A stretch of DNA of 48,408 nucleotides. Source: a virus. Positions 17,872-47,762 of this stretch are shown here, in pieces. Location of the stretch: IMG/VR virus record IMGVR_UViG_3300046615_000032; one strand, written 5' to 3'. Within the stretch, counting starts at the first letter, position 1. Every line of letters begins with the position of its first letter. A program made the position numbers and the translations under genes. The notes below the pieces were generated by a model. It had not been told where the DNA came from. It was given only the letters and a program-made list of their open reading frames with translations, and made no database searches.

Positions 17872-17996
17872 GCGGATCTCCTTCTCTCGGTGTGTGTTGC
17901 TCGGTAGGTGCAACGTACACGAACTTGCTTGCACTGTCACTCCCTGTGTGTAACGATGTGCAAGTAGTTACCGAGACCACATGAGAGGAGCACCAC
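17872..17996. promoter_or_regulatory. Divergent regulatory region
   Basis: Contains GTGCAA/TTGCAC inverted repeats, CTCGGTA...TACCGAG arms, AGTGACAGTG and TGTGTAAC motifs, and a GAGAGGAGCACC SD. Confidence 0.5.
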
Positions 17997-18455
17997 ATGG
18001 GAGCCCGCAAGATCCAGGACGAGCAGGAGGTCATCCGCTGGTTCGAGGAGGGGCGCACGTACGCCTGGATGGTGGACGAGTACAAGCGCAAGTACAACAT
18101 CGAGACCGTGCCCTCCCTGTGGGGGAACTTCCGGCGTCGGCGTGGGTTACAGCGTCGGCTCACCCGCAACGACGAGCTGATCCCCTGGCACGTCAAGCCT
18201 GAGCACCGCTGGCTGTACCCGATCGGGATGCTGCGCGTCGAGGCTCGGCGGCGAGACAAGGGCGAGGACGCCATCAGTGACCTGGAGCGCACCCGGCTCA
18301 ACTCCTGGAAGAAGATGCTGGCCGACGAGAACGCCGTCGTGCACTACGACCCGGACACCGAGGAGGGCTTCTTCTACGTCCCGCGCGGTGAGGGTGACAC
18401 GGACCTGATCCACGTCCCCAAGGTCAAGACCACCCCACGCCCTCGGGTGGACTGA
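17997..18455 (+). CDS. HTH DNA-binding protein
   Basis: 152 aa. The N-terminal EVIRWFEEGRTYAWMVDEY segment is HTH-like and the protein is basic. It is the first rightward early gene. Confidence 0.55.
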   Translation: MGARKIQDEQEVIRWFEEGRTYAWMVDEYKRKYNIETVPSLWGNFRRRRGLQRRLTRNDELIPWHVKPEHRWLYPIGMLRVEARRRDKGEDAISDLERTRLNSWKKMLADENAVVHYDPDTEEGFFYVPRGEGDTDLIHVPKVKTTPRPRVD

Positions 18456-18550
18456 CCCGGTTTGTAACCGTTCAAGTTTCCAGTGTTACTGTTCGACCCC
18501 GCAGTTCCGGTGCCACGGACTGCCCAGATGAAGACAACGTCTGATGCAAC

Positions 18551-18579
18551 TTGCACACTGGCCGAAGAACATGTACTGT
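18551..18579 (+). promoter_or_regulatory. Sigma70-type promoter candidate TTGCAC-17-TACTGT
   Basis: -35 at 18551-18556, -10 at 18574-18579. It is flanked by two GCAACTTGCAC 11-mers (18546 and 18593). Confidence 0.45.
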
Positions 18580-18626
18580 CCTTCGAGTCAGCGCAACTTG
18601 CACGCACCGGAGGAGGTAACCGCAAG

Positions 18627-20096: not shown

Positions 20097-20579
20097 GTGA
20101 GGGAACTGACCGTCACCATCAAGTACGGCAAGGGCTACGAGGAGACCTGGGCGGTCTTCAAGGGCAGCCCGGACGAGGTCCGCGAGGACATCATCTCCTA
20201 CTTCGGCGTCATGCGTGACAGTGTGAGCGAGTTGACGCTGAGCGAGCTGGTCGTAGAGATGACCAGCCTGGCCCACGGGAAGGGCAACATCGCCCGCTTC
20301 CTTGGTGGCACGATCATCCCGCCCTCTGAGGCGGCGGCCCCCCCGGCCCCGGCACCGAGCGGTGACCCCTGGGCTGCGGCGCAGAGCTCGACCCCCGTCC
20401 ACACGGTCGCTGACAACCAGCAGGCCGAGGACCCCAACGCCTACATCCTGGGCGAGATCGAGAAGCAGACCGACGTCGCTTCGCTGAAGCGCCTCTGGGC
20501 TGAGAACCAGAGCTTCTTCTCCGACCCGTCCGTGATGGCTGCGTGGAAGGCGAAGGGCAAGGCCCTCAGCGCCGCGTAG
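20097..20579 (+). CDS. Hypothetical protein
   Basis: 160 aa, GAGAGAGGAG SD, good GC3. Confidence 0.75.
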   Translation: MRELTVTIKYGKGYEETWAVFKGSPDEVREDIISYFGVMRDSVSELTLSELVVEMTSLAHGKGNIARFLGGTIIPPSEAAAPPAPAPSGDPWAAAQSSTPVHTVADNQQAEDPNAYILGEIEKQTDVASLKRLWAENQSFFSDPSVMAAWKAKGKALSAA

Positions 20580-20645: not shown

Positions 20646-21080
20646 GTGGCTCTCAACTTCATGGACATCCCCACGCAGGGCGGCGGCTGGTTCAAGCCGA
20701 AGGACAACGTCGACGCGGTCGCGATCCTCATCGAGGTCAAGCAGTTCGACCGTCAGCGTCCGACCCCGAACGGCCCGAAGGACTCGGTCCTCGCGGACGT
20801 CTCCGTCTTCAAGACGCAGGCCGACCTGGACGCTGGCCGTCCGGAGATCGCGAAGGGCCAGAGGATCGAGCAGACCGTCCTCGCCCGTGACCTGGAGGCG
20901 ATCGTCGGTGGCGCGACCATCGTGACCCTGGCCCAGATCCCGGCCAAGAAGCCGGGTGCCTACCCGGCGTGGGTGTGGCGTCAGGCTGAGCGCGCTGCTC
21001 AGCAGAAGGTCATCGACTACGCGACCAAGCGTGAGGCGGAGGTCAACGCGGCGCTCGACGCTGCGCCCGACTTCGACTGA
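20646..21080 (+). CDS. Hypothetical protein (ALNFMDIP N-terminus)
   Basis: 144 aa, AAAGGAGA SD. Confidence 0.75.
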   Translation: MALNFMDIPTQGGGWFKPKDNVDAVAILIEVKQFDRQRPTPNGPKDSVLADVSVFKTQADLDAGRPEIAKGQRIEQTVLARDLEAIVGGATIVTLAQIPAKKPGAYPAWVWRQAERAAQQKVIDYATKREAEVNAALDAAPDFD

Positions 21081-21152
21081 GGTGTGACAGTGTGACCCGT
21101 AGGGGGGCGTTCTTCGGAGCGTCCCCCTTGGGGCAGTGAGAGAGGAGGTCGA

Positions 21153-22444: not shown

Positions 22445-22518
22445 CCGAGTGTGTTACTGTGTACGAAGACGGAGCAGGGGGCCGCAAGGTCCCCTCTCCT
22501 CGAAGGGAGTGTGAGAGT

Positions 22519-22884
22519 GTGAGCAACCCCGTCAGAAACAAGAAGAAGGGGGCCGAGTGGGAGAACGAGCTGAAGAACAAGTTCCGTGCCACCGGCTTCG
22601 ACATCGAGCACCTGCACCTGAACGGCAGTGAGGACGAGGGTGACCTGGTCATCCGGTCCTGGAACGGCAAGACCTGGGTCATCGAGGCGAAGAACGCGAA
22701 GATGGACCCCAACCAGTTCGTCAAGGAGATGGAGGCCGAGGTCGGCCACTACGCCTCCCATCGGGGACTGGACCCCGAGCTGGTCGACGGCGTCGTGATC
22801 GTGAAGGCGTACCGCAAGCCCTGGCGCAAGGCGTACGTGATCACCACGGTGGAGCGGTTCTTCGGTCTGGACGATGCCGCATGA
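22519..22884 (+). CDS. PD-(D/E)XK nuclease, Holliday-junction-resolvase-like
   Basis: GAEWENEL ... GSEDEGDL ... VIEAKN motifs. GTG after a GGGAG SD. Confidence 0.6.
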   Translation: MSNPVRNKKKGAEWENELKNKFRATGFDIEHLHLNGSEDEGDLVIRSWNGKTWVIEAKNAKMDPNQFVKEMEAEVGHYASHRGLDPELVDGVVIVKAYRKPWRKAYVITTVERFFGLDDAA

Positions 22885-24478: not shown

Positions 24479-25649
24479 GCTCCTGAAGAAGCCTGTCGGA
24501 CCGAGCGTCCCCGCCCGCAAGACCAACCCCGAGAAGGACTTCACCCGACAGATCGAGGTGACCGGCGACGTCGCTGCGGTGACGGTGCGGGGCCTGCCGG
24601 ACGAGGTGGACGAGAGCGCGGCTGCCGAGTACCTGCGCTCGAAGGGCGAGGACCCGGAGCTGTGGATCGCCACCGGCTTCCGCTCGGGCGAGTGGACCAT
24701 GGCGAACGGCGACGTCGGGGTGAGCAACCGCTACACCTTCAAGCGCCGCGACCCGCTGCTCGACTTCGAGCGCCCCTCCCTGGACGAGCTGATCGCAGCC
24801 GTTGACAACTACGTCCCCAGTGTGACAGTGTCGCAGACGGACGGGGAGTTCACCTTCATCGTCGCCATCGGCGACATGCAGTTCGGCAAGATCGACGGCG
24901 ACGGTGTCGAGGGAACGCTCGAACGGACCATCGACTGCCTGAACAAGGCGGCTGCTCTGCTGGAGCAGTACCGGCTCCGGTTCCCGATCGGCCACGTCCA
25001 CATCGCCTGGCTCGGTGACCACATCGAGGGCTTCGTCTCGCAGGGCGGGGCCAACACCTGGCGCACGGTGCTCACGCTGAACGAGCAGATCCGCCTGACC
25101 CGACGAGTGATGCTCCACGCGCTGCTCCTGTTCGCGCCGCTGGTCGCTCGTCTCACGATGGCTGCTGTACCTGGCAACCACGGTGAGGCTGTCCGGATCA
25201 ACGGCAAGGGCGTGACGCGGTACGACGACAGCCACGACACCGAGTCCCTGATCGCCGTGAAGGACGCGGCTGACCTGAGCCCCGAGCGGTTCGGTCACGT
25301 CGAGTTCTACGTGCCGGACACGGACGAGCTGAGCGTCGTAGTCGAGTGCTCGGGCACGGTCGTCGCCCACGTCCACGGTCACCAGTTCCGACCGGGCAAG
25401 CACTTCGACTACTGGAAGGGCCAGGCGTTCAACCGCGCCTCCGCCTTCCACCAGGCCGACCTGCTCCTGGCCGGTCACCTGCACCACGAACACGTCGACA
25501 CCGATGGGTTCCGCACCTTCATCCAGCCCCCGGCGATGGAGTCGGAGAGCACCTGGTGGAGGCACGCCAAGGGCACGACCGGTGCTCCTGGCCTGATCGT
25601 CGCCGTCACCAAGGACGGCAACACGAACCTGAAGGAGGTGGTCCGGTGA
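24462..25649 (+). CDS. Calcineurin-like metallophosphoesterase (Mre11/SbcD-like)
   Basis: GDMQFG, GDHIEG, PGNHGE, HGHQF and GHLHHEH motifs. Confidence 0.8.
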   Translation: MSLKDELLKKPVGPSVPARKTNPEKDFTRQIEVTGDVAAVTVRGLPDEVDESAAAEYLRSKGEDPELWIATGFRSGEWTMANGDVGVSNRYTFKRRDPLLDFERPSLDELIAAVDNYVPSVTVSQTDGEFTFIVAIGDMQFGKIDGDGVEGTLERTIDCLNKAAALLEQYRLRFPIGHVHIAWLGDHIEGFVSQGGANTWRTVLTLNEQIRLTRRVMLHALLLFAPLVARLTMAAVPGNHGEAVRINGKGVTRYDDSHDTESLIAVKDAADLSPERFGHVEFYVPDTDELSVVVECSGTVVAHVHGHQFRPGKHFDYWKGQAFNRASAFHQADLLLAGHLHHEHVDTDGFRTFIQPPAMESESTWWRHAKGTTGAPGLIVAVTKDGNTNLKEVVR

Positions 25650-25999: not shown

Positions 26000-26395
26000 G
26001 TGGGAGCTGCGTACGACAGGGCACTGGTCGAGAGTCTGCTGCCCGCTCACTTCGATCCGGCTGCGGCCTACGGAGTGAAGAACGAGACCGCGCCGGACGC
26101 GGACATGCCCAAGGTCAAGGCCAACCCCAAGCACGCGAACACCCTGTTCGCCCACCTCGCCGACATGAACGCGGCCTGGAGGTGGGCGGTCGCGGGCGGG
26201 CTGTCGTGGGAGGAGGCGCGAGCCACCCTCATGCGGTACGGCCTGGACTGGACGCTGGAGATGATCGCCCTCGGCGAGAACTGCAACAAGAGCACCGCAC
26301 AGCGACGGTGCGAGCGGGCGGTCGGGAAGATCACCGCCTACCTGAACCAGGACCGCTACGTGGACGGCTACGACACGAAGGAGGAAGCAGCGTGA
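26000..26395 (+). CDS. Sigma-factor region-4-like HTH protein
   Basis: LSWEEARATLMRYGLDWTLEMIALGENCNKSTAQRRCERAVGKI resembles sigma region 4. The GTG start directly follows the in-frame TGA. Confidence 0.5.
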   Translation: MGAAYDRALVESLLPAHFDPAAAYGVKNETAPDADMPKVKANPKHANTLFAHLADMNAAWRWAVAGGLSWEEARATLMRYGLDWTLEMIALGENCNKSTAQRRCERAVGKITAYLNQDRYVDGYDTKEEAA

Positions 26396-26763
26396 GCGAC
26401 ACCCCAGTGCCTGCCCCGGAGGGCATGAGCGAGGCAGCCATGGAGTTCTGGGAGGACAGCACCCAGACCTACTACCAGCGAGCTGAGGACGGGCTGGTCT
26501 ACTCCCGGCCCTACACCGAGAACGAGCTCGCCCGGTACGTGAAGGAGCGGCAGCTCGACGTCCTCGGGCAGGCAGCTCGGGAGGCGATCCCCTACCTGGA
26601 CGAGCGCATCGACAAGAGCCTGGCCTACCTGGCTCTCAGCGCGCCGTCGCCCGAGGAGACCGCAGCGCAGATCAAGGTGCTGTCCGACCTGGCTGCGTAC
26701 AACGCGGGCACCCTGAAGCGGATGATCCTCGTCCTCGGGGAGCTGACCGGACGCCCGGTGTGA
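26392..26763 (+). CDS. Hypothetical protein
   Basis: 123 aa, GTGA overlap with the upstream gene, GAGGAAG SD. Confidence 0.7.
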   Translation: MSDTPVPAPEGMSEAAMEFWEDSTQTYYQRAEDGLVYSRPYTENELARYVKERQLDVLGQAAREAIPYLDERIDKSLAYLALSAPSPEETAAQIKVLSDLAAYNAGTLKRMILVLGELTGRPV

Positions 26764-26860
26764 CAGTGGTACAGTGTGCAAGTGCGGCAGGCGGCAGTCC
26801 TTCGGGGCTGTCGCCTTGCGGCAGTGAGAGAACAGACGAACTTCAAGGAGGACCCACTCA

Positions 26861-28972
26861 GTGAGCAGCACCACCCCCTTCGGCCCGACCGGTCAGACCG
26901 TGTACGAGCGGACGTACTCCCGCACCAAGCCCAACGGCGAGAAGGAGACGTACCCCGAGACGGTGGCCCGCGTGGTCGAGGGCAACCTCGCGCTGGTCTA
27001 CGGTCCTCGTTCCGGCTGGGATGTGACAGTGTCGCAGGAGGCCGAGAAGCTGACCGCCTACATGGAGAGGTTCGCCATCCTCCCGGCTGGTCGCCACCTC
27101 TGGGCGTCCGGCGTCAAGGGCAGGCAGTACCTGTTCAACTGCCACGTCGCTGGCTGGGGAGAGACCCTGGCCCGACACTTCGAGTTCACCTTCCTCCGCC
27201 TGATGGAGGGCGGCGGTGTGGGAGCGAACTACTCCTCCCGCTTCCTGGCTCCCTACGGTGCACCGCGCCGGGCGCTGAACGTCCACGTCGTGTGCGACCC
27301 GACCCACCCCGACTACGCCGAGATGCAGGCGGCTGGCCTCCTGTCCACCGAGTACGACTCGGACTGGGACGGGGCCTTCGAGGTCGAGGACTCCCGCGAG
27401 GGATGGGCTGACGCCCTGGTCGACCTGATCGACACCTTCATGACGGACGACGAGGTCGTCCACTCGAACCGCGTCTACGACGTGAGCCGAGTCCGAGGCA
27501 AGGGTGCCCGGCTGAAGACCTTCGGTGGCACGGCCTCTGGCCCTGGCCCGTTCGCCCGCATGATGGCGGAGATCGGCAAGGTCATGAGCGCCGCGAGCAA
27601 CCCGGCCAGCCGCGTCCGCATCCTCGACGGCTCGACCTACCTGCTCGACCACCTCCACCCCACCGAGGCCATGGAGATCGACCACGCCATCGCGGAGTGC
27701 GTCGTCTCGGGTGGCAACCGTCGCTCTGCCCGCATGGCGATCGTGCACTGGGCCGACCCGCTGATCGAGGACTTCCTCGCGTGCAAGGCGGACGGCTCGA
27801 AGCACTGGACGACGAACATCTCGGTCGAGATCGACAACGACTTCGTCGGCTACCTCACCGGCGAGAAGCACGACGACTTCGGTCCGGGCGGCAACGAGCT
27901 GGCCTACCGCGTGCACCGCAAGGTGGTGCAGGGGATGCTCCTGAACGGGGAGCCGGGCTACTGGAACAGCGACCTCTCGAACGAGGGAGAGCCGGGCCTG
28001 GTCATCGCGACGAACCCCTGCGGCGAGATCGCTCTCGAAGCCTGGGAGAACTGCAACCTCGGACACGTCAACCTCGACGCCTTCGCGCCCACCGAGAAGG
28101 GTGGCTCGTTCGATGAGGCTGGCATGAAGGAGGCGCACGCCCTCGTCACCCGCTTCCTGATCCGAGCCACCTACGGCGACGTGAACGACGACGAGCAGGC
28201 CGACCGTCTGGCGAAGAACCGGCGCATCGGTGTCGGCCACTTCGGGGTGCAGGGCTTCCTCGCGAAGCTCGGCATCCGGTACAGCTCGGCTCCGTTCTCG
28301 TTCATGCCGGGCCTGCTCGATGACCTGTACGACGTGGTCCGTGAGACGGCTCGCGAGTACGCCTTCGAGCTGCGCATCCCGGAGCCGGTCAAGGTCACCA
28401 CGGTGGCACCGACTGGCACCATCGCGAAGATGCCGGGCGTAACCGAGGGCATCCACCCGATCTACGGGCGGACGTTCCTGCGCCGGGTCCGCTTCTCCTA
28501 CTCGGACGCTGACCAGGCCGCTGCGGTCGACCGGTTCTTCATGCAGGGGTACGCCGTGGAGGCGTGCGTCTACGACCCGTCCGGCAACACGATGGTGGTC
28601 ACCTTCCCGACGAAGGACAAGCTCGTCGCCGAGGTCGAGGAGATGGGCTACGACGCGGAGCTGGTCGAGTCCGCTGACGAGCTCACGCTCGACCAGATGC
28701 TGTGCTTCCAGGCGATGTACCAGAAGCACTACGCCGACAACGCGGTGAGCTTCACGGCCAACGTGCCGGAAGGGCTCGACCTGGACGAGACGATGGACGT
28801 CATCCAGTCCTGGCTGCCCCACCTGAAGGGCACCACGATCATGGTCGACGGCACGCGAGAGCAGGCACCGTACGAGCGGATCTCCGAGGAGGAGTTCAAC
28901 CAGTACGAGGCCACTCGGATCGAGGACTCGACCGACGAGGACTGCGCCACGGGAGCCTGCCCGGTGCGGTAG
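26861..28972 (+). CDS. nrdJ: Class II (adenosylcobalamin-dependent) ribonucleotide reductase
   Basis: 703 aa with the TNPCGEI active-site motif and a C-terminal CxxC. Confidence 0.9.
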   Translation: MSSTTPFGPTGQTVYERTYSRTKPNGEKETYPETVARVVEGNLALVYGPRSGWDVTVSQEAEKLTAYMERFAILPAGRHLWASGVKGRQYLFNCHVAGWGETLARHFEFTFLRLMEGGGVGANYSSRFLAPYGAPRRALNVHVVCDPTHPDYAEMQAAGLLSTEYDSDWDGAFEVEDSREGWADALVDLIDTFMTDDEVVHSNRVYDVSRVRGKGARLKTFGGTASGPGPFARMMAEIGKVMSAASNPASRVRILDGSTYLLDHLHPTEAMEIDHAIAECVVSGGNRRSARMAIVHWADPLIEDFLACKADGSKHWTTNISVEIDNDFVGYLTGEKHDDFGPGGNELAYRVHRKVVQGMLLNGEPGYWNSDLSNEGEPGLVIATNPCGEIALEAWENCNLGHVNLDAFAPTEKGGSFDEAGMKEAHALVTRFLIRATYGDVNDDEQADRLAKNRRIGVGHFGVQGFLAKLGIRYSSAPFSFMPGLLDDLYDVVRETAREYAFELRIPEPVKVTTVAPTGTIAKMPGVTEGIHPIYGRTFLRRVRFSYSDADQAAAVDRFFMQGYAVEACVYDPSGNTMVVTFPTKDKLVAEVEEMGYDAELVESADELTLDQMLCFQAMYQKHYADNAVSFTANVPEGLDLDETMDVIQSWLPHLKGTTIMVDGTREQAPYERISEEEFNQYEATRIEDSTDEDCATGACPVR

Positions 28973-30136: not shown

Positions 30137-31474
30137 TTGGCCAAGCGAGCCGTCATCTACACCCGAGTGTCCCGAGACGACACCGGGGAGGGTCAGTCCA
30201 ACCAGCGCCAGGAGCGCGAGTGTCGGCGGCTGACCGACTACAAGCGGCTCGACGTGATCGCGGTCGAGGCGGACATCTCCATCTCAGCGTACTCGGGCAA
30301 GGAGCGCCCGGCCTGGCGTCGCGTCCTGGACATGGTCCGGAACGGTGAGGTCGACTACGTGATCGCCTACCACATGGACCGGATGACCCGGTCGATGTTG
30401 GACCTGGAGGAGCTGATCATCCTGTGCGAGGAGCACGGGGTGGGCATCGCTACTGCGGTCGGCGACATCGACCTGACGTCGGACATGGGCCGCATGGTGG
30501 CCCGCATCCTGGCGGCTGTGGCTCGGGCCGAGGTTGAGCGCAAGAGCGCCCGGCAGAAGCTGGCCAACGCGCAGCGTGCAGCCGAGGGCAAGCCTCACTC
30601 GGGAGGACAGCGTCCCTTCGGGTACACCCGCGACCACACGAAGGTGCTGACCGACGAGGCTGAGCTGATCCGAGACGCGGCTCGACGTGCGCTTGCCGGT
30701 GAGCCCCTGGCTTCGATCGCGAAGGACTGGCCGATGACCCCGCGAGGCGTGAAGAACGTGCTGACGAGCCCCCGGTACGCGGGCATCCGCATGTACCTGG
30801 GAGAGCGCGTCGGCGAGGGTAGCTGGGAGCCGATCCTGGACATCGAGACGCACCTCCGACTGGTCGAGTCGCTGACCGATCCAGCCCGAGTGAAGGGCGG
30901 CGTGAAGAAGGGGCGGACCCCGGCTTCTCTGCTCACCGGCATCGCCCTGTGCTCGGTCTGCCGAGTGCCTGTCCGTGGGTCCTCGGTCCGTGGTCGGATG
31001 ACGTACTCCTGCCGCAGCTCCCACGCCCACGTCGAGCGCGCTGACGCCGACACCCTGGTCCTCGGTGCCGTGATCAACCGACTGTCCTCCCCGGACTGGG
31101 TGAAGGAGCTGGCCCCCTCGGGTGACGACCGGCTGGTCGACGCGAAGCGGGTGGTCGAGGAGCAGCGCGCGATGCTGAAGACGTACGCCCGGCTGCTCGC
31201 ATCGGGAGCGATGGACGAGGAGCAGTTCACCGAGGCTTCCGCCGTGGCTCGGGGCTCGATGCAGGAGGCGGAGAAGATCCTCTCGCAGGCCGCTGACGGG
31301 GCGATGCTCGAAGGGTTGGACGTCGGGACCGACCGGGTCGGTTCGCAGCTCCTGGCCCTGCCTCTGGGCCGTCAGCGAGGCATCGTGGAGCAGATGCTCA
31401 GCGTCGAGATCGCACCGCAGGTGAAGTCGCGGTCGAACCCCCTGCCCCTGGAGGAGCGCGTGCTCATCGCCTGA
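30137..31474 (+). CDS. int: Large serine recombinase (integrase)
   Basis: N-terminal AVIYTRVSRDD catalytic-serine motif, a resolvase-like domain, and a Cys-rich recombinase/zinc-ribbon region (CSVC...C). 445 aa. Confidence 0.9.
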   Translation: MAKRAVIYTRVSRDDTGEGQSNQRQERECRRLTDYKRLDVIAVEADISISAYSGKERPAWRRVLDMVRNGEVDYVIAYHMDRMTRSMLDLEELIILCEEHGVGIATAVGDIDLTSDMGRMVARILAAVARAEVERKSARQKLANAQRAAEGKPHSGGQRPFGYTRDHTKVLTDEAELIRDAARRALAGEPLASIAKDWPMTPRGVKNVLTSPRYAGIRMYLGERVGEGSWEPILDIETHLRLVESLTDPARVKGGVKKGRTPASLLTGIALCSVCRVPVRGSSVRGRMTYSCRSSHAHVERADADTLVLGAVINRLSSPDWVKELAPSGDDRLVDAKRVVEEQRAMLKTYARLLASGAMDEEQFTEASAVARGSMQEAEKILSQAADGAMLEGLDVGTDRVGSQLLALPLGRQRGIVEQMLSVEIAPQVKSRSNPLPLEERVLIA

Positions 31475-34944: not shown

Positions 34945-35007
34945 TGCTGTGTTCCTCTCGTTCGTGGTCCCAGTGTCACACACCGGGCGAGCCGATGCAA
35001 CTTGCAC

Positions 35008-36417: not shown

Positions 36418-36432
36418 TGGTGGATCACACAG

Positions 36433-36654
36433 TCACACCGCGATGAGATCCCGAGCGAAGTCGGTGACCTCGCCGTCCTCCGTCAGGTACCCGGCCTCGA
36501 TCATGTCGCGGGCGGTCCGTCCGTAGTGGCCCTGGAGAGTCCAGGCCATGCCGCTCTTGACCAGGGTGCCGAACAACTCCAGCGTCTCCGCGTCGTCCAG
36601 CTCACCCGACTCGTAGCTGATGATGTCGATGACCAGGCTGCCCATCTTGCTCAC
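36433..36654 (-). CDS. Hypothetical protein
   Basis: 73 aa, GAGAGGGAG SD. Confidence 0.7.
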   Translation of the reverse strand: MSKMGSLVIDIISYESGELDDAETLELFGTLVKSGMAWTLQGHYGRTARDMIEAGYLTEDGEVTDFARDLIAV

Positions 36655-36721
36655 TGTGTGCTCCCTCTCGGTTGGTGTGTGCTCACACTCTCACACGCTG
36701 TGCGAGTGTGTCAAGGTTGGA

Positions 36722-38321: not shown

Positions 38322-38750
38322 TCACTCCCCCGCGTTGTCCTCGATGTCCTGGAGCAGCTTGCTGACCAGCCGGTAGGCGATCAGGTACAGCGCCCAGCCA
38401 GCCTGCGTGTCCAGGTCGGCGAACTCGCTGGTGTCGGCGATCTCGCTCACGTCCTCGGTCCAGGCACCCAGGTCGGTGAAGGTCAGCCACTTGTCGTAGG
38501 TGTAGATCGGGACCGCACCGTCTGCGATCTCCCCGTCAGCCCCCTCGTAGCGGACGTTCTCGACCGCCTCGGCCAGGCTGAACTCGCCGTGCTCGACGCG
38601 CCACTCGACCGCCTCGATCACACTGTCACGGATGCCTCGCAGGAAGCGGGCTCCCGCACTGTCCTCGTCGTCCGGGGTGCTCGACTCGGCGTCCACCGCC
38701 AGCTTCCAGTGGCTCAGGCCCTTGATCTCGCTCAGGATGTCGTCGCTCAT
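38322..38750 (-). CDS. Acidic hypothetical protein
   Basis: 142 aa, Asp/Glu-rich. Confidence 0.7.
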   Translation of the reverse strand: MSDDILSEIKGLSHWKLAVDAESSTPDDEDSAGARFLRGIRDSVIEAVEWRVEHGEFSLAEAVENVRYEGADGEIADGAVPIYTYDKWLTFTDLGAWTEDVSEIADTSEFADLDTQAGWALYLIAYRLVSKLLQDIEDNAGE

Positions 38751-38792
38751 GGTGTACTCACTCTCACAGGTTGGGGTTGGATCAGGTTGAGT

Positions 38793-38832: not shown

Positions 38833-38872
38833 TTGCCGATGTGCTCACACTCTCACACTCTCGGCCCTCCCG

Positions 38873-39133
38873 TCAAGCGGGGTAGATGCCGAGGCACCAG
38901 CTCGTCACGGGCTCCAGGAAGACACCCGGCAGCCACTCGGGCTCGCTGCCCGCCTTCTCCGTGACCTCGAACACCCACTCGGGGTGACCCTCCAGGGCCA
39001 GGGACCAGGCACCCTCGCTCAGACCCTCATGGTCGTGGTCGGCCAGGAAGAAGTACCCAGCGTCGAGCGGGTACAGCTTCTCGATCTCAGCCTTGACGTG
39101 CTCGGCCTGCTTGCGGCTCAGCGCCTTGCTCAT
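38873..39133 (-). CDS. Hypothetical protein
   Basis: ATG at 39133 lies 5 nt after a GAGGAG SD. Confidence 0.65.
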   Translation of the reverse strand: MSKALSRKQAEHVKAEIEKLYPLDAGYFFLADHDHEGLSEGAWSLALEGHPEWVFEVTEKAGSEPEWLPGVFLEPVTSWCLGIYPA

Positions 39134-39856: not shown

Positions 39857-39863
39857 TGTGCGG

Positions 39864-40520
39864 TCAGACCGCGATCGGGAGGGCGAGCTGGTCAGGGTGC
39901 TCACCCAGGAAGGCACGGAAGGCGTCGTACGCCTTGGCCTCGAAGTACTCGTCCCGCAGCTCGGCGTACAGCTCCTCGACTGCGTTCCAGCTCACGTCCG
40001 CCCCATCCCAGGGCAGCCGGTCCCCTGCGACCTCGTACAGCCGGTCACGGAGCTCCTGCGCCTCAGCGTCAGAGTCCAGGTCGTAGTCACGCTGCGCCTG
40101 GTCGATCGCCTCGCTCAGGTTCTCCTCGTAGAGCTTCCACTCACGCTCGGAGTAGTCGGACTCGTCCACGATCGGGTACGACTCCAGGCCCTCGCCGATC
40201 TCTACGATCGCCTTCCAGGCTGCGGTGAACGTCACCCCGTCGTCCTCGTACACTCGGACGAACAGTTGACGCAGCGACCCGACCAGCCAGTGACCGCACG
40301 TTGCGTCGATCACGTCGTCCTCGGACTCAGCCGCCCCCTGGACGATCTCCAGTGCGCTGAGGTAGTTCGACTCCTCCAGGATGTCGTCCCCACGCTCGGC
40401 CCAGGTCAGGGTCGACCCGTGCGTCTCGTACAGCCGCTCATCCCAGAACGCTGCGTCGCTCGGTCGGGTCAGAGCCTTCTCCGCCCACTCGGCCAGCGTC
40501 TCGATGTCGATCTCGTACAC
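39864..40520 (-). CDS. Acidic hypothetical protein (218 aa)
   Basis: Strongly Asp/Glu-rich. GTG after a GGGAG SD. Confidence 0.75.
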   Translation of the reverse strand: MYEIDIETLAEWAEKALTRPSDAAFWDERLYETHGSTLTWAERGDDILEESNYLSALEIVQGAAESEDDVIDATCGHWLVGSLRQLFVRVYEDDGVTFTAAWKAIVEIGEGLESYPIVDESDYSEREWKLYEENLSEAIDQAQRDYDLDSDAEAQELRDRLYEVAGDRLPWDGADVSWNAVEELYAELRDEYFEAKAYDAFRAFLGEHPDQLALPIAV

Positions 40521-40555
40521 AGTCCACTCCCACTGTCACAGCATGGTTGCTGAGT

Positions 40556-40951: not shown

Positions 40952-40964
40952 TACACTCACACTG

Positions 40965-41342
40965 TCACACAGTCAAGCGCATGAAGACCACGTCAGGCTC
41001 ACCAGGCGTCCAGTTCGGGACGCGCTCGTACTCGGTGAAGCCGAACTGCTTGTAGTACTCAGGCAGGAAGCCATCGAAGCAGTCCAGGCGATCCGCACCG
41101 TGGTGCAGGATCGAGCTCCAGACCAGGTCGACACCCCGCCCCTTGATCAGGGAGAAGACTCCGACCAGGGTGCCGTCACCAGCCACGCCGTAGCCGGACT
41201 CCAGGTCGTCGGCGACGTAGTAGGCGTACGACGCGGGCATCTCCTCCGGAGTGGAGGTGGCAGCGGCGATGAGCTGGCTCTTGGAGCGCGCCCGTCGCAG
41301 TGCCTGAGTGTAGATGCCGTGACCGACTCGGAAGTAGATCAT
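40965..41342 (-). CDS. GNAT-family acetyltransferase-like protein
   Basis: 125 aa from the ATG at 41342. IKGRGVDLV and FLPEYYKQFGFTE GNAT-like motifs. It is the first gene of the punctuated array. Confidence 0.6.
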   Translation of the reverse strand: MIYFRVGHGIYTQALRRARSKSQLIAAATSTPEEMPASYAYYVADDLESGYGVAGDGTLVGVFSLIKGRGVDLVWSSILHHGADRLDCFDGFLPEYYKQFGFTEYERVPNWTPGEPDVVFMRLTV

Positions 41343-41391
41343 GTCCAACCCTCTCAGTTGCAACACTGTCACAGCCGGTGCTGTGACCAGT

Positions 41392-44637: not shown

Positions 44638-44642
44638 CGGAG

Positions 44643-46298
44643 GTGAGCCTCATGATGGCCAAGCCGGTCATGACGACCGAGGAGATCGAAGCCCTCGAAC
44701 CGGAGTTCCACGGTCCTACGTGGATGCGGAACGAGGACGGCTCCTGGGTCCTGCCCGAGCGCACGCTCGGCTGGCAGATCGCAGGCTGGTGCGCTGAGTA
44801 CCTGAACGCCGAGAACGGCGGTCCCTGGCGGTTCACGAAGGAGCAGCTTCGCTTCGTCCTGTGGTGGTACGCCATGGACGAGACGGGTCGCTTCGTGTAC
44901 CGCAAGGGCGTACTCCAGCGCCTGAAGGGCTGGGGCAAGGACCCGCTCCTCGCCGTGATCTGCCTGGTCGAGTTCGTCGGGCCGTCGCGCTTCTCCCACT
45001 GGGATGCCAACGGTGACCCTGTCGGCGTACCTCACCCGCAGGCGTGGGTGCAGATCGCTGCCGTGTCTCGGGATCAGACCCGGAACACGATGACTCTGAT
45101 GCCGTCGCTCATGTCGGACAAGCTCATCAACACCTACGGCATCAAGGCCGGGGCCGAGCTGATCCGAGCGAACGGCGGACGTCAACGGCTCGAAGCCGTG
45201 ACCTCCAGCTTCCGTGCTCTTGAAGGTGGCCGGTCCACCTTCGTCGTGCTGAACGAGACCCATCACTGGGTCCGAGGCAACAACGGCGACAAGATGTACG
45301 AGACGATCGACGGTAACGCGACCAAGAAGGACGCGCGCTACCTGGCGATCACCAACGCCTACCTGCCCGGCGAGGACTCTGTCGCTGAGCGGATGCGGGA
45401 AGCGTTCGAGAAGATCCGCGAGGGTCGAGCTCTGGACATCGGCTTCCTGTACGACTCGATCGAGGCGCACCCGAAGACACCCCTCTCCCCCGAGGCGCTG
45501 CGCATCGTCCTCCCCAAGATCCGGGGAGACGCGATCTGGCTGAAGGTGGAGACCATCATCCAGTCCGTGCTCGACACGACGCTCTCCGCGAGCCGGTCTC
45601 GACGCATGTGGCTCAACCAGATCGTGGCTGAGGAAGACGCCCTCTACGGCCCTGCCGAGTGGGACGTGCTCCGCGACGAGCGCCTGACACTGAAGCCCGG
45701 TGACGAGATCACCCTGGGCTTCGACGGTGGCAAGACCGACGACGCAACCGCCCTGGTGGCGGTCCGCGTCAAGGACATGGCCTCGTTCGTGCTCGGGATC
45801 TGGGAGAAGCCAGACGGTCAGGCCGGTGACGGGTGGATCGTGCCTCGCGCTGCCGTCGACTCGGCGGTGCACGACGCCTTCCAGACCTTCACGGTCGTCG
45901 GCTTCTTCGCCGACGTCGCCCTCTGGGAGTCCTACATCTCCGAGTGGGATGACGCCTACGGCGAGAGCCTGTCGGTCAAGTCCCCCCTCGGGAAGGACTC
46001 GATCGGCTGGGACATGCGTGCGTCGCAGAAGACGTCGACCATGGCCCACGAACGCCTGATGCGCTCGGTCTTCGACAAGAAGCTGAAGCACGACGGTGAC
46101 CTGACCCTGCGACGCCACGCCCTCAACGCGCGCCGGGCGACGAACAACTACGGCATCGGCTTCCGCAAGGAGAGCAAGGACTCTCCTCGCAAGGTCGACG
46201 CCTACGCCGCCCTGATGCTGGCGCATGAGGCGCTGGTCGAGCTCCGAGCTCGCGGCAAGAAGACCAAGAAGCGGACCGGTCGCGGGTACTTCCTGTGA
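44643..46298 (+). CDS. Terminase large subunit
   Basis: 551 aa. KGWGKD Walker-A-like and VVLNETHHW Walker-B-like motifs. Position fits. An alternative ATG start lies at 44652. Confidence 0.9.
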   Translation: MSLMMAKPVMTTEEIEALEPEFHGPTWMRNEDGSWVLPERTLGWQIAGWCAEYLNAENGGPWRFTKEQLRFVLWWYAMDETGRFVYRKGVLQRLKGWGKDPLLAVICLVEFVGPSRFSHWDANGDPVGVPHPQAWVQIAAVSRDQTRNTMTLMPSLMSDKLINTYGIKAGAELIRANGGRQRLEAVTSSFRALEGGRSTFVVLNETHHWVRGNNGDKMYETIDGNATKKDARYLAITNAYLPGEDSVAERMREAFEKIREGRALDIGFLYDSIEAHPKTPLSPEALRIVLPKIRGDAIWLKVETIIQSVLDTTLSASRSRRMWLNQIVAEEDALYGPAEWDVLRDERLTLKPGDEITLGFDGGKTDDATALVAVRVKDMASFVLGIWEKPDGQAGDGWIVPRAAVDSAVHDAFQTFTVVGFFADVALWESYISEWDDAYGESLSVKSPLGKDSIGWDMRASQKTSTMAHERLMRSVFDKKLKHDGDLTLRRHALNARRATNNYGIGFRKESKDSPRKVDAYAALMLAHEALVELRARGKKTKKRTGRGYFL

Positions 46299-46328
46299 CA
46301 GTGAGACCAACGGAAGGACGGTGGGCCT

Positions 46329-47762
46329 GTGGCTGACACCTCCCCGGCGTCGCTGGCCAAGCAGCTCCTCGCGATCCTTCATCGGGACGGCGACCGGCTG
46401 CGACGCATCGACGCCTACAACCAGGGCAAGCATGACGACCCCTACATGCCGCCCCAGGCGGACGACGAGTACCGGCTACTGGCCCGGAGGGCAGTGTCCA
46501 ACTGGATGCCCCTCCTGGTCGGCACACCGGCTCAGGCTCTGTACGTCGATGGCTTCCGTCGAGGACAACTCGGCGAGACCATCGCAACTTCCGAGCCTGA
46601 GTCCGCGTCTCTGGAGTGGAAGCACTGGCAGCGGTCGCGGCTCGACGCCCGGCAGTCTGCGGTGTACCGGGGCGCGCTGGCCTTCGGTCACAGCTTCACG
46701 CTGACCGAGAAGACCAAGAAGGGCGTCATCACCAAGGGCCTGTCGGCCATGCGGACCGCTGCCCTGTTCGAGGACCCGGCGAACGACGACACGCCCTACG
46801 CGGCGTTGACCGTCACGGCCTGGGCCAAGGATGACGTCCCCGGCAAGGCTCGCCTGTTCGACGGCAAGTCCGAGTACCAGGTCACCTTCAAGTCCCTCTC
46901 GGACCTGAAGGGTGTGACAGTGGGTGCGGGCAAGCGTCACGGCGCGAGCGAGTGTCCGGTCACCCGGTTCGCTGCGTCGGTCGACCTCGAAGGCCGTACG
47001 ACCGGCGTGATCGAGCCGATGATCGCGCTTCAGAACCGCATCAACCAGACCATCTTCGATCTCCTGGTCGCCCAGACGTACACCTCGCATGAGGTGCGGT
47101 ACGCGACCGGCATGGCCCCTCCCATCGAGCGGGACGAGAACGGCGATCCGGTCCTGGATGAGAACGGCCAGCCCAAGGCCATCCCGATGAACCACAACTC
47201 CCGGCGCTTCCTGTTCGCCGAGGACGCGGACGTGAAGTTCGGCTCACTGCCGGGCGGTCCGATCGGTGGCCTCATCGAGTCCGTCGACATGAGCATCCGA
47301 CACCTCGCGGCTGTCTCTCAGACGCCGCCGCACCACCTGCTGGGTCAGATCGCGAACCTCTCTGCTGAGGCTCTGCTCGCTGCCGAGACTGCGCTGTCGC
47401 GCAAGATCGCGGAGTTCCGGGCGTCCTTCGGTGAGAGCTGGGAGCGCGTGATGCGCCTGGCTGGGGAGATGGAGGGCGACATCACCTCTGCTGAGGACTT
47501 CGCTGGCGAGGTCATCTGGCGGGACATGGAGCAGCGTTCGCTGGCTCAGGCCGCTGACGCTCTCGGCAAGCTGAAGGAACAGCTCGGCATCCCTGCCCGT
47601 GGTCTGTGGAAGCGCGTGCCTGGGGTCACCCAGACCGAGCTCGAAGACTGGGAGTCGATGCGCGAGGACGATGACCCCATCGGTCAGCTCGCCTCCTCGA
47701 TCACCCGTGCAACCCCTGACCCGACGCCGATCTCCGCTACCCCGGAGGTGGCTGTCGAGTGA
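46329..47762 (+). CDS. Portal protein
   Basis: 477 aa, directly after the large terminase and before the MuF-like gene. Confidence 0.9.
   Translation: MADTSPASLAKQLLAILHRDGDRLRRIDAYNQGKHDDPYMPPQADDEYRLLARRAVSNWMPLLVGTPAQALYVDGFRRGQLGETIATSEPESASLEWKHWQRSRLDARQSAVYRGALAFGHSFTLTEKTKKGVITKGLSAMRTAALFEDPANDDTPYAALTVTAWAKDDVPGKARLFDGKSEYQVTFKSLSDLKGVTVGAGKRHGASECPVTRFAASVDLEGRTTGVIEPMIALQNRINQTIFDLLVAQTYTSHEVRYATGMAPPIERDENGDPVLDENGQPKAIPMNHNSRRFLFAEDADVKFGSLPGGPIGGLIESVDMSIRHLAAVSQTPPHHLLGQIANLSAEALLAAETALSRKIAEFRASFGESWERVMRLAGEMEGDITSAEDFAGEVIWRDMEQRSLAQAADALGKLKEQLGIPARGLWKRVPGVTQTELEDWESMREDDDPIGQLASSITRATPDPTPISATPEVAVE

Follow-up and report, generated by a model that had tools for sequence, protein, structure and literature searches.

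What is the role of a short sequence that recurs along a temperate phage genome and points each time in the direction in which the local genes are read? The question is raised by a viral DNA of 48,408 nucleotides (the window), the circularly permuted genome of a temperate Streptomyces phage that is R4-like (Joe/Endor2/phiScoe3-type). The 10-mer TGTGACAGTG is most probably the core of the DNA site of the phage immunity repressor, encoded at 17997..18455, and would serve to silence phage genes in lysogeny. An operator for a phage regulator had been one of several alternatives in the preliminary description of this DNA, and it is the best-supported one. The evidence lies in the enrichment, orientation, placement, conservation and clade-specific concerted variation of the sites, and in the identity and fold of the repressor.

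There is a published precedent for such a system. The repressors of Cluster A phages recognise asymmetric sites of 13-14 bp, present 20-30 times per genome and oriented with transcription; some of these sites are operators in promoters, most are stoperators, and reversed sites give no repression (PMC6550527, PMC9283540). The motif described here has the same features, namely asymmetry, co-orientation, and both operator and stoperator placement.

TGTGACAGTG occurs in the window in exactly 11 copies (both strands), at the coordinates and on the strands first reported. The expected number is 0.13 by dinucleotide shuffles and 0.035-0.14 by Markov models of orders 1-4, and the motif ranks first for over-representation among the 10-mers of the window, so the claimed enrichment survives correction for composition. 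Sites with at most one mismatch number 23, against 4.1 expected. The original list of these was incomplete: it missed 20214, 22510, 38759, 38848 and 41827, as well as 18962 and 37366, and it included 13601, which reads TGTGACAGAA and has two mismatches. The sites at 18962 and 37366 lack conservation in relatives and look like chance occurrences. The related form TGTTACTGT is present at 18484 and 22452, as had been noted, and two further variants, TGTGCAAGT and TGTGAGAGT, are each found five times and swap with the TGTGACAGTG-type motif (AC-type; the phages that carry it are the AC clade) at orthologous sites. TGTGAGAGTG forms a partly separate class, which is mostly promoter-embedded in the window and is also found in a clade with a different main motif. 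The exact copies, with their state in related phages, are as follows.

21083..21092, plus strand: 2 nt past the stop of gene 20646..21080, without a -35; stoperator-type; exact in Endor2, phiScoe3 and Yosif, TGTGTAAGTGT in R4, TGTGCAACCTT in Izzy.
24802..24836, plus strand: TTGACA-N13-TGTGACAGTGTCGCAG within the metallophosphoesterase (MRE11-like) gene, a promoter-embedded copy (24821) that may form an operator-controlled promoter inside the gene; at this offset Izzy carries TGTGGTACCTTCGCAGAC.
26759..26783, plus strand: exact copy and, 6 nt apart, the R4-type copy TGTGCAAGT (26775), with the RNR gene downstream; the exact copy provides the TGA stop of 26425..26763; Endor2 has the AC-type at both positions, R4 has TGTGTAAGTGT at the ortholog of 26759.
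27022..27037, plus strand: the exact 16-mer TGTGACAGTGTCGCAG within the ribonucleotide reductase gene, without a -35; stoperator-type; exact in 8 of 11 orthologous loci, TGTGCAAGTG in Yosif; the RNR of the compared R4-type loci lacks it, this segment being variable there.
32931..32940, minus strand: the motif ends 32936..33184 with its TGA and opens 32382..32933 with its GTG; TGTGTAACTT in all seven Joe-like genomes aligned.
34536..34545, minus strand: between genes, in a gap of 59 nt, with a hairpin after it; stoperator-type; exact in 9 of 9 relatives, with variable flanks.
40531..40540, minus strand: the RBS GGAG follows directly, ahead of the GTG that begins 39864..40520; of 10 orthologous loci, four have the exact motif and six have variants (TGTGAGAGTG in two).
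40960..40969, minus strand: provides the TGA stop of 40965..41342, with a tRNA-like hairpin downstream; exact in 9 of 10 relatives, TGTGATAGTG in Yosif, TGTGATACCTT in Izzy.
41364..41373, minus strand: the tandem early promoters lie about 240 nt upstream, and the first right-arm gene begins 22 nt further on.
46294..46303, plus strand: its TGA ends the large terminase gene, and the portal gene starts 26 nt further on; Endor2 and phiScoe3 have the exact motif.
46913..46922, plus strand: within the portal gene, without a -35.

Variant and promoter-embedded sites complete the set.

17932..17941, minus strand: AGTGACAGTG in the divergent control region that separates the repressor gene from the small gene 17590..17871 of the minus strand, a candidate autoregulatory or lytic-switch operator; GTGACAGTGCAAG is kept in Endor2 and phiScoe3.
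20214..20223, plus strand: CGTGACAGTG, one mismatch, co-oriented and conserved as such.
22510..22519, plus strand: TGTGAGAGTG, sharing bases with the start codon of the Holliday-junction resolvase gene, whose RBS comes just ahead of the motif; kept in Endor2, phiScoe3 and Yosif.
34971..34980, minus strand: TGTGACACTG, 17 nt after TTGCAT and with AGTGCAAGT ahead; a conserved variant.
36428..36437, minus strand: TGTGACTGTG, a point variant; exact TGTGACAGTG at the same site in all 9 relatives.
36686..36714, minus strand: TTGACA-N13-TGTGAGAGTGTGAGCA, a promoter whose -10 position the motif occupies, likely a true operator; the ortholog in Joe, Sitrop, Alsaber, Saftant, Endor1 and phiScoe3 is AC-type.
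38621..38630, minus strand: CGTGACAGTG, one mismatch, co-oriented and conserved as such in 7 relatives.
38759..38768, minus strand: TGTGAGAGTG, 8 nt ahead of the ATG of 38322..38750, without a -35.
38848..38876, minus strand: TTGACG-N13-TGTGAGAGTGTGAGCA, a promoter-embedded copy; TTGACA-N13-TGTGACAGTGT in 8 relatives, TTGACC-N13-TGTGCTACCTT in Izzy, and a -35 of TTGATA in Lannister.

All 11 exact copies are co-oriented with the local genes (one-sided p=5e-4), and the orientation flips at two transcription boundaries, the integrase gene (about 31.5 kb) and the genome end (about 42.2 kb). Eight of the 11 touch non-coding DNA, where the expectation is 13% (P=1e-5). The observations that the motif supplies the upstream TGA stop at 26759, 40960 and 46294, that it holds both a stop and a start at 32931, and that the three intragenic copies (24821, 27022, 46913) are read Val-Thr-Val were all borne out. 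The placement of most copies 10-70 nt upstream of a start codon describes about half of the junction copies, but together these span -3 to about 115 nt. The metallophosphoesterase (24821) and RNR (27022) genes share the 16-mer TGTGACAGTGTCGCAG, as claimed; it and the VTVSQ peptide that it encodes are found in the AC clade only. Since it has been written into variable loops of two unrelated enzymes in one clade only, selection appears to act on the DNA.

How do the sites behave among related phages? At orthologous positions each clade has its own version: TGTGACAGTG in Joe-like phages, where it is the dominant motif in every genome examined, TGTG(C/T)AAGTG in R4 and TGTGnnACCTT in Izzy. Thus, the sites at 21083, 26759, 38848, 40960 and 24821 correspond to TGTG(C/T)AAGTGT in R4 and/or TGTGnnACCTT in Izzy. 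Motif columns are modestly better conserved than their flanks (91.5% versus 85.6%). The site is asymmetric, with partial conservation at positions 11-16; its length is roughly 14-16 bp, TGTGACAGTG-K-G-A-S, with TGTGACAGTG as the invariant core. S. coelicolor is a host common to R4 and to two Joe-like phages, Endor2 and phiScoe3. The host is shared but the motif is clade-specific; therefore, a phage factor and not the host RNA polymerase sets the motif. Yosif keeps TGTGA(C/T)AGTG and a repressor whose N-terminal part is 94% identical to that of the window, while its sigma-like protein is 56% identical; this discordance is a single case.

Which phage factor could this be? The gene at 17997..18455 (plus strand) encodes a protein of 152 aa with two predicted domains, a helix-turn-helix (HTH) and a Stoperator domain. 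It matches phrog_3929, 'transcriptional repressor' (6.7e-83), and phrog_357, the family of mycobacteriophage L5 gp71 (1.3e-7); BLASTP with L5 gp71 gives 7e-10, and the PHROG and BLAST matches are reciprocal. The protein is 62-88% identical to annotated immunity repressors of 172 Streptomyces phages. A profile derived from it matches PDB 7r6r, the solved Cluster A2 repressor-DNA complex (1.4e-8). The AF2 model (pLDDT 81.8) has 7r6r_A as its sole significant Foldseek match (E=3.2e-5, TM 0.55, 144 of 152 residues aligned), the next match having E=0.86. Its invariant R100 aligns with an arginine that is essential in the solved repressor. The sequence alignment with L5 gp71 covers the C-terminal domain only, and no sequence similarity is detectable between the N-terminal HTH regions of these two proteins. 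Across clades there is next to no variation in the HTH region or in the motif's 5' TGTG; clade-specific substitutions fall at residues 52-110, and the part of the site that varies is its 3' half. In these features, as in Yosif, the motif follows the repressor. No single repressor residue tracks motif type cleanly in the clade comparison. L41M was considered as a determinant of motif type and fails, as Joe has M41 with AC-type sites.

Could the motif instead be a promoter element? An extended -10 had been proposed, and at 36686, 38848 and the intragenic 24821 a -35 (TTGACA/TTGACG) does lie exactly 13 nt before the motif and 16 nt from GA(C/G)AGT, an architecture conserved in relatives. The TTGACA-N16 arrangement at 36686 and the TTGCAT-N17 arrangement at 34971 are both present as described. 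The three sites at the -10 of TTGACA-N16 promoters probably serve as true operators. At the right genome end lie the phage's three clearest promoters of the sigma70 type.

P1, 41814..41842, minus strand: early promoter, TTGACT-N17-TAGAGT.
P2, 41677..41705, minus strand: early promoter read from the sequence, TTGCAC-N17-TAGAGT.
P3, 41609..41637, minus strand: early promoter, TTGACA-N17-TAGAGT with TG before the -10; this region resembles the L5 TTGACA-N17-TAGAGT promoter (presumed P-left).

As a general explanation the extended -10 does not hold, and it fits only a subset of copies, because these clearest promoters use TAGAGT and not the motif, because several copies cannot drive their neighbouring gene, those at 32931 and 22510 overlapping start codons, that at 40531 being followed directly by the RBS GGAG and those at 27022 and 46913 being intragenic without a -35, and because the R4 and Izzy orthologs, despite the common host S. 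coelicolor, lack the essential -11 A in the alignment originally proposed. The L5 repressor sites read CTTGACAGCCACC in the sense direction, a -35 look-alike, and provide a precedent for promoter mimicry.

A reading in which each copy serves host RNA polymerase with HrdB as an early or middle promoter, without any repressor, is unlikely. It would make the right arm a series of small genes, each with its own promoter. Co-orientation would follow naturally, TTGACA/G/T lies at exactly 16 nt in the three window sites and in about 30 of 138 contexts from relatives, the motif is two bases away from the phage's own TGgTAGAGTG promoters, and all clade variants retain a TG-n-n-A-n-n-n-T skeleton compatible with an extended -10 whose hexamer is motif positions 6-11. 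However, 108 of the 138 contexts lack a -35 (score <=4/6) and 6 of the 11 exact window copies lack T at position 11. The copy at 32931 cannot be a promoter for the next gene, and a transcript begun at 40531 would leave out the RBS. Neither ten invariant bases nor a concerted, clade-specific change among phages of one host is expected of a host sigma element, and an antisense one-mismatch copy, TGTGTCAGTG (41827-41836, plus strand), lies in the P1 -35/spacer and is conserved in 7 of 7 relatives. A promoter role for further copies beyond the three may nevertheless exist. Recognition by the phage sigma-like protein (26000..26395) has a low probability. This protein has a match to phrog_3512, 'sigma factor', and a weak one to a sigma-factor profile, and it is 92% conserved in the AC clade but only 54-61% identical to its R4 and Izzy counterparts, whose motifs differ. 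Yet the Yosif protein is as distant as that of R4 although Yosif has AC-type sites. The sigma-like protein has no Pfam or PDB sequence match, and its weak similarity is limited to the C-terminal 80 of 131 residues; several copies lie upstream of its gene and share its direction of transcription, those embedded in promoters have the housekeeping -35 TTGACA, and the copies cluster in early regions, not ahead of late genes.

Similarly improbable is a site for another phage protein, for example a Cro-like antagonist encoded by 17590..17871. R4 and Izzy homologs of its product are annotated 'DNA binding protein', and the gene is divergent from the repressor gene with the motif variant pointing toward it, but the product is only 52-66% identical among phages with an invariant motif and has no family annotation that we found. 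The L5-type paradigm is described as lacking a Cro analogue, and the repressor fold already explains an asymmetric site. An element acting in RNA (UGUGACAGUG), as a signal for processing, stability or translation, has a slighter chance still: it would make co-orientation automatic, all copies being on the sense strand, and many stand just ahead of an RBS or adjoin right-arm tRNA-like hairpins. Their distance from start codons has no fixed register, however, they share no common secondary structure, the order of motif and hairpin is inconsistent, conserved antisense copies occur in the P1 spacer and the repressor control region, and what is seen is explained by a homologous DNA-binding system. 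A Chi-like site for recombination or nuclease control, protecting from either DNA end, could explain why orientation differs by genome region, but it is hardly credible: the flips coincide with transcription boundaries, the copies are concentrated at gene junctions, and a host nuclease signal should match within one host, where R4 and Joe-like phages differ.

How would the immunity repressor act at these sites? By homology with L5 gp71 and the Cluster A repressor of TipsytheTRex, it would bind as a monomer, its HTH at the N-terminal end and its Stoperator domain at the C-terminal end occupying successive major grooves. Binding to TGTGACAGTG, and a block of both initiation and elongation, are what the homologous system would predict. 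The promoter-embedded copies TTGACA-N13-TGTGA(C/G)AGTGT (36686, 38848, intragenic 24821) would act as operators in the lysogen, where bound repressor would cover the -10 region and prevent initiation. Junction and intragenic copies would be stoperators, at which repressor bound in that orientation would stop elongating RNA polymerase and silence read-through over the early right arm, the replication module and the terminase-portal region. The variant copy at 17932, in the control region of the repressor gene, probably serves autoregulation and control of the divergent gene.

A repressor-stoperator system has been reported for R4-like phages, with motifs TGTGCAAGTGTNGC and others (PMC10276819), an assignment that appears to be bioinformatic. 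With such systems already published for these phages, the window provides a new example of a known mechanism.

The over-represented 10-mer TGTGACAGTG is probably best explained as the set of operators (promoter-embedded sites) and stoperators (sites where bound repressor would stop elongating RNA polymerase) of an immunity repressor of the L5 gp71 type, with binding predicted for the 152-aa product of 17997..18455 (+). By megablast, the window holds the complete genome, in circularly permuted form, of a temperate Streptomyces phage of the R4-like group. The nearest relatives are Joe, Endor2, phiScoe3, Vanseggelen, Sitrop, and Alsaber, with 83-89% identity over the aligned parts, and the physical ends of relatives map to ~42.2 kb of the window. 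The genome layout, based on a GC3-based gene map made here and on the annotation of Endor2, phiScoe3, and R4, is as follows:

~42.5 kb through the window end to 17.5 kb, rightward: packaging and virion genes
17590..17871, leftward: small divergent gene
17997..18455, plus strand: immunity repressor gene
up to ~30 kb, rightward: replication and nucleotide-metabolism genes
30137..31474: serine integrase gene
31.6-41.3 kb, leftward: small early genes of the 'right arm'

No other 10-mer of the window is as over-represented as TGTGACAGTG. The preliminary description had counted 11 exact copies, on the plus strand at 21083, 24821, 26759, 27022, 46294, and 46913 and on the minus strand at 32931, 34536, 40531, 40960, and 41364, and these coordinates and strands are correct; the expectation is 0.13 from dinucleotide shuffles and 0.035-0.14 from Markov models of orders 1-4. 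Candidate versions of the site named beside it are TGTGACAGTGTGAGC, TGTGACAGTGGGACC, TGTGAGAGTGTGAGC, and TGTGCAAGTG. Sites with at most one mismatch number 23, against 4.1 expected. Several of these were missing from the earlier one-mismatch list, while 13601, which that list included, has two mismatches. Two of the one-mismatch sites, 18962 and 37366, lack conservation in relatives and were set aside as matches due to chance. There are about 20 sites in all: 11 exact copies, four co-oriented copies of TGTGAGAGTG, and five conserved one-mismatch sites. Each of the exact copies (11/11) points in the direction of the local genes, as had been noticed, and the dominant motifs of Endor2, phiScoe3, R4 (mostly), and Izzy are likewise co-oriented with transcription. 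Non-coding DNA is touched by 8 of the 11 exact copies, compared with an expected 13% (P=1e-5, using the GC3-based gene calls made here).

The ten bases of the motif do not vary, and conservation extends in part to positions 11-14 (T/G, G, A, C/G), which gives a site of ~14-16 bp. It is asymmetric and lacks dyad symmetry: TGTGACA by itself comes close to a palindrome, which is not true of the whole site. Several details of placement proposed from inspection also stand, namely that copies supply stop codons, that the copy at 32931 provides a stop plus a start, that intragenic copies are read Val-Thr-Val, and that 24821 and 27022 have the 16-mer TGTGACAGTGTCGCAG in common. The distance to the start codon, put at 10-70 nt, in fact ranges from -3 to ~115 nt.

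Is the factor that reads this site encoded by the host or by the phage? The dominant repeated word of every Joe-like genome is TGTGACAGTG. The 9-mer TGTGACAGT occurs 11 times in the window, 13 times in Endor2, and 14 times in phiScoe3, and the right arms of Joe, Amela, Saftant, Sitrop, phiCAM, Alsaber, Endor1, and Yosif each carry 5-10 sense-strand copies of this AC type (AC, AG, and CA denote versions of motif positions 5-6). The R4 genome has zero copies of TGTGACAGTG; it contains 10 copies of TGTGCAAGT and seven of TGTGTAAGT, mostly co-oriented. In Izzy, Lannister, Nanodon, and Danzina, TGTGnnACCTT is found instead of the AC type, with 19 copies genome-wide in Izzy that are co-oriented in the central region and the right arm. 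The different words occur at orthologous positions:

Sequences in R4 and Izzy-like phages at positions orthologous to window sites
21083: R4, TGTGTAAGTGT; Izzy-like, TGTGCAACCTT
26759: R4, TGTGTAAGTGT; Izzy-like, no entry
38848, promoter-embedded: R4, no entry; Izzy-like, TTGACC-N13-TGTGCTACCTT
40960: R4, no entry; Izzy-like, TGTGATACCTT
24821, in the MPE gene: R4, no entry; Izzy-like, TGTGGTACCTTCGCAGAC at the same offset

S. coelicolor is the recorded host of R4, Endor2, and phiScoe3. That a motif has been replaced in concert, genome-wide, in phages with a common host indicates a factor encoded by the phage rather than a host polymerase or nuclease.

Within the clade, the majority of copies are retained at orthologous positions, with 9/9 genomes for 34536, 9/10 for 40960, 3/3 for 21083, and 2/2 for both 46294 and 46913; at 36428, a point variant in the window, the orthologous site is exact in all nine relatives. 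Motif columns are conserved at 91.5% and flanks at 85.6%, a modest contrast because the flanks are often coding. Both intragenic 16-mers, in the genes of an MRE11-like phosphoesterase (24821-24836) and of ribonucleotide reductase (27022-27037), encode VTVSQ; in this clade only, the pentapeptide is found in variable, indel-rich segments of these unrelated enzymes. The same 16-mer in such segments of unrelated proteins shows selection on the DNA sequence and clearly exemplifies a protein sequence overridden by a regulatory DNA word.

The window repressor matches PHROG 3929 'transcriptional repressor' at 6.7e-83 and PHROG 357, the L5 gp71 family, at 1.3e-7; reciprocally, L5 gp71 matches both PHROG 3929 and PHROG 357. 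A BLASTP alignment with L5 gp71 (7e-10) covers the C-terminal part, and the profile of the Streptomyces family matches the 'Immunity repressor' entries 7r6r/7tz1 of the PDB at 1.4e-8. In an AlphaFold (AF2) model with pLDDT 81.8, an HTH of three helices is followed by a linker, a pair of long helices, and two strands. When this model was compared with the PDB by Foldseek, the sole significant match was 7r6r_A, a Cluster A2 repressor-DNA complex (E=3.2e-5, probability 1.0, TM 0.55/0.51, 144/152 residues), and the next hit had E=0.86. The essential R108 of the solved repressor corresponds in the alignment to R100, a residue that does not vary within the Streptomyces family. Many homologs of the repressor are encoded on Streptomyces chromosome contigs of megabase size, where prophage repressors would be expected, and the repressor is 62-88% identical to those of R4-like phages. 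A Pfam search gave zero matches for the repressor, for the sigma-like protein encoded at 26000..26395 (+), and for the product of the divergent gene. Between the repressor gene and the divergent gene, GTGACAGTGCAAG is conserved in the window, Endor2, and phiScoe3, which is where an autoregulatory site would be expected.

The Cluster A repressor is a monomer whose HTH and Stoperator domains bind successive major grooves of a 13-14-bp asymmetric site, the HTH domain being met first by RNA polymerase; there are 20-30 sites per genome oriented with transcription, of which a few are promoter operators and most are elongation-blocking 'stoperators', and repression is abolished by site reversal (PMC6550527, PMC9283540). 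Sequence diversity and immune specificity reside mostly in the C-terminal domain (PMC6550527, PMC9283540). The system of the window resembles that of Cluster A (L5 gp71, Bxb1 gp69, TipsytheTRex; PDB 7r6r) in its homologous repressor with the same predicted two-domain fold, in an asymmetric site of 13-16 bp with ~15-20 conserved, co-oriented copies mostly in short intergenic gaps and a few inside putative promoters, and in a motif that varies between related phages together with the repressor. It differs in host genus and in the size of the repressor, which has 152 aa compared with 183 and lacks part of the acidic tail. The repressor gene is located between the lysis and replication modules and is transcribed rightward, whereas in Cluster A it lies in the leftward right arm.

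Across the three clades, residues 1-50 of the repressor, with the recognition helix among them, hardly vary, and the 5' TGTG of the site is equally stable. Substitutions specific to a clade, together with a 2-residue indel, fall within residues 52-110, a span that takes in the linker, the loop joining the two long helices, and the first part of the R100 helix, and the clade-variable part of the site is its 3' half. The variable residues and the variable half-site match a model in which two domains read the site, as a correlation across nested clades. L41M was considered as a single HTH residue tracking motif type and failed, because Joe has M41 with AC-type sites.

A partly independent test is provided by Yosif (IMGVR_UViG_2974781839), which keeps TGTGA(C/T)AGTG. 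Over the first 70 residues, its repressor shows 94% identity to that of the window, while identity to the window's sigma-like protein is only 56% in Yosif, comparable with 56.5% in R4 and 61% in Izzy; the motif thus follows the repressor, not the sigma-like protein. Yosif sites have the form TGTGA(C/T)AGTGTCGC, a window-type 5' half with an R4-type 3' extension, and several C-terminal positions of its repressor match R4. Yosif looks like a natural intermediate or chimera that is useful for mapping domain against half-site.

The sigma-like protein itself (131 aa, 26000-26395, plus strand) matches PHROG 3512 'sigma factor' and, weakly, the C-terminal part of a sigma-factor profile, and a PDB sequence search with it gave zero matches. 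In relatives, the annotation of this protein varies between sigma factor, transcriptional regulator, and DNA-binding protein, and divergence from clade to clade is strong (54-61% identity).

Do the sites act as promoters? The preliminary description read the motif as an extended -10 element, and this is reasonable for 36686, 38848, and the intragenic 24821. TG-T-GACAGT fits an extended -10 with TG at -15/-14, A at -11, and T at -7, and the two -35-like boxes that had been cited are present. Like actinobacterial extended -10 (TGn) promoters, TG-n-GA(C/G)AGT carries A as the second and T as the sixth base of the hexamer, and the three copies have a consensus -35, TTGACA or TTGACG, exactly 13 nt before the motif and hence 16 nt from GA(C/G)AGT; the TTGACA/TTGACG-N13-motif architecture is kept in relatives. 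Unlike such promoters, the motif has ten invariant bases, its sequence is clade-specific, and most copies lack a -35, which is absent in 108/138 distinct motif contexts of related genomes. In the alternative register, with the hexamer at motif positions 6-11, T is found at -7 in only 5/11 copies. A placement that allows expression of the downstream gene is seen at 36686, 38848, and 34971. By contrast, 32931 and 22510 overlap the start codon of the adjacent gene, 40531 is followed directly by a GGAG ribosome-binding site, and 27022 and 46913 are well inside long genes without a -35, so that these five cannot serve the adjacent gene. At 40960 and 36428, a structured hairpin comes after the motif and not before it. 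The clearest sigma70-type promoters of the genome are the TAGAGT units at the right end, where the main motif is not used. On these grounds, the motif was rejected as a general promoter element. Temporal promoter classes, with different motif classes by region of one genome, are ruled out by Izzy, in which a single class is found genome-wide. A Chi-like nuclease-control site was rejected since the sequence is clade-specific and the copies are concentrated at junctions. The start-associated sequences (SAS) of Cluster K, which Pope et al. are said to have described in 2011, reportedly include the ribosome-binding site and lie at a fixed short distance from the start codon; they too are a repeated asymmetric motif of ~13 bp oriented with transcription near gene starts. 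A fixed-distance element of this kind was rejected because of the variable distance to the start codon and the three intragenic copies.

The 950-bp non-coding right end contains three tandem sigma70-type promoters (41595-41960, minus strand) with TAGAGT as the -10: TTGACT-17-TAGAGT, TTGCAC-17-TAGAGT, and TTGACA-17-TAGAGT. A repeated 'GAGACCAGAACGAA' unit comes after each of the three. As in L5, the right-end early promoters share a near-identical -10 region: cctggTAGAGTgagacca in the window closely resembles ccggTAGAGTgagaatc of the L5 TTGACA-N17-TAGAGT promoter, presumed to be P-left, which suggests an early promoter conserved between Streptomyces and Mycobacterium phages. The exact copy at 41364 is ~240 nt downstream of the tandem promoters and 22 nt before the first early gene. 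At the tandem promoters themselves, only an antisense one-mismatch copy was found, in the spacer of the early promoter P1 (41814..41842, minus strand) at 41827, where it is conserved in 7/7; by conjecture, this copy may be the operator of the main early promoter.

Why should a repressor site look like a promoter? Along the direction of right-arm transcription, L5 repressor sites read CTTGACAGCCACC, in which a perfect -35 hexamer is joined to six other bases, and one of them is the -35 of the TTGACA-N17-TAGAGT promoter, presumably P-left; experimentally proven L5 stoperators thus also resemble promoter halves. The L5 site mimics and overlaps the -35, whereas the window site mimics an extended -10 and is found at the -10 in promoter-embedded copies. 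The skeleton TG-n-n-A-n-n-n-T is kept by all three clade variants (hexamer at motif positions 6-11), and in the promoter-embedded copies it is at the right distance from the -35. The repressor site would have evolved on the -10 region of early promoters, with copies elsewhere keeping the skeleton, and such an origin would explain the initial impression of an extended -10. As a minority view, there is room for some more copies with promoter or pause activity. It is unlikely that the sites in general are evolved extended -10 mimics seen by both the RNA polymerase holoenzyme and the repressor, with the latter reading the intervening positions. If they were, a copy could be a weak -35-independent promoter, or a sigma-dependent pause site within the transcribed strand; promoter/pause modules, each gated on its own, would make up the early region; and polymerase that paused at the -10 mimic would be easier for the repressor to stop during elongation, L5 being the mirror case with a -35 mimic.

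Under the operator and stoperator explanation, variant words also have to be placed. The R4-type word TGTGCAAGT has five copies in the window against 0.125 expected:

4612-4620, plus strand: TGTGCAAGT at the major-tail/chaperone junction, conserved in Endor2, phiScoe3, and R4
17957-17965, plus strand: TGTGCAAGT
18549-18557, minus strand: TGTGCAAGT
26775-26783, plus strand: TGTGCAAGT
41928-41936, minus strand: TGTGCAAGT

One copy is 31 nt before the repressor start codon, and one is just after a right-end TTGACA box, where Endor2, Sitrop, and Saftant have the AC form. TGTGAGAGT, also with five copies, coexists with the main motif, and both words interchange with it at orthologous positions. For example, the window has CA and Endor2 has AC at the second site upstream of RNR, and at 36686 and 38848 the AG of the window is replaced by AC in most relatives. 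In the Izzy clade, too, TGTGAGAGTG is found behind a TTGACA box. The repressor may tolerate changes at positions 5-6, or some variants may be repressor-independent promoters; the TGTGCAAGT copies may be bound more weakly by the same repressor or may serve some other purpose. TGTTACTGT is found twice (18484-18492 and 22452-22460, plus strand; 0.02 expected), in the gap after the stop of the repressor gene and of the helicase gene, respectively, and may be a further diverged member of the site family.

Two structured elements were seen beside the copies. A hairpin, GGACCGCC...GGCGGTCC, immediately follows the 34536 copy (34493-34551, minus strand); its stem has paired substitutions in relatives (GGACCGGC...GCCGGTC), so the hairpin itself appears conserved. 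A second over-represented co-oriented element, GGTTCGAGNCC, occurs 10 times against 0.21 expected, always on the minus strand and between early genes:

~36370-36425, minus strand: GGTTCGAGNCC element
~37048-37103, minus strand: GGTTCGAGNCC element
~37725-37780, minus strand: GGTTCGAGNCC element
~38268-38323, minus strand: GGTTCGAGNCC element
~38785-38840, minus strand: GGTTCGAGNCC element
~39159-39214, minus strand: GGTTCGAGNCC element
~39809-39864, minus strand: GGTTCGAGNCC element
~40548-40603, minus strand: GGTTCGAGNCC element
~40904-40959, minus strand: GGTTCGAGNCC element
~41384-41439, minus strand: GGTTCGAGNCC element

All ten share one fold, with a 5-bp outer acceptor-like stem, a conserved GACCGGCAG(G/A)CAC, and a perfect tRNA T-arm, and 5/11 pairs of this fold show compensatory changes. 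In the window, ARAGORN found no tRNA genes and Rfam gave no hit of any kind at the gathering threshold; the T-arm-like words beside many copies are therefore not annotated tRNAs. The only sub-threshold Rfam match is to the tRNA-like mascRNA (E=0.89, not significant). The words of the element are also present in relatives, including the Izzy clade, and the 'tRNA-Arg' annotated in the right arm of Endor2 may be one of them. Possibly, the element is a tRNA-like minihelix with a part in mRNA processing or stability.

PMC10276819, citing Smith et al. 2013, gives predicted stoperators of R4-like (BD cluster) phages, TGTGCAAGTGTNGC for R4, TGTGCAAGTGTNGCA for ELB20, GTGTGCAACCTTCGTA for Zemlya, and AGTGTGTTAGNCNGAC for phiHau3, and describes a scan of phiScoe genomes with these four motifs only. 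The sites of the window agree with these in phage group, genome architecture, repressor family, orthologous positions, and the frame TGTG-nn-A-nnn-T-(C/G)GCA; they differ in the central bases, which are AC compared with CA/TA in R4 and nnACCT in Zemlya and Izzy. A literature search for the exact motif returned unrelated primer sequences only and no paper stating the TGTGACAGTG consensus, and no experiment on any R4-like repressor was found in the literature searched. What is new is the consensus of this clade; the system itself has already been described for the R4-like group, and no new kind of biology is opened.

The finding is of modest interest to specialists. It supplies a specific repressor-site consensus for the Joe/Endor2/phiScoe (Camvirus-type) clade, with which the annotation of these sites as promoters can be avoided. 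The consensus can be used for predicting homo- and heteroimmunity among Streptomyces phages and for orthogonal repressor-operator pairs in Streptomyces synthetic biology. The orthologous sites of three clades, at which the motif has switched in concert, are a natural data set for the evolution of immunity specificity in a two-domain monomeric repressor.
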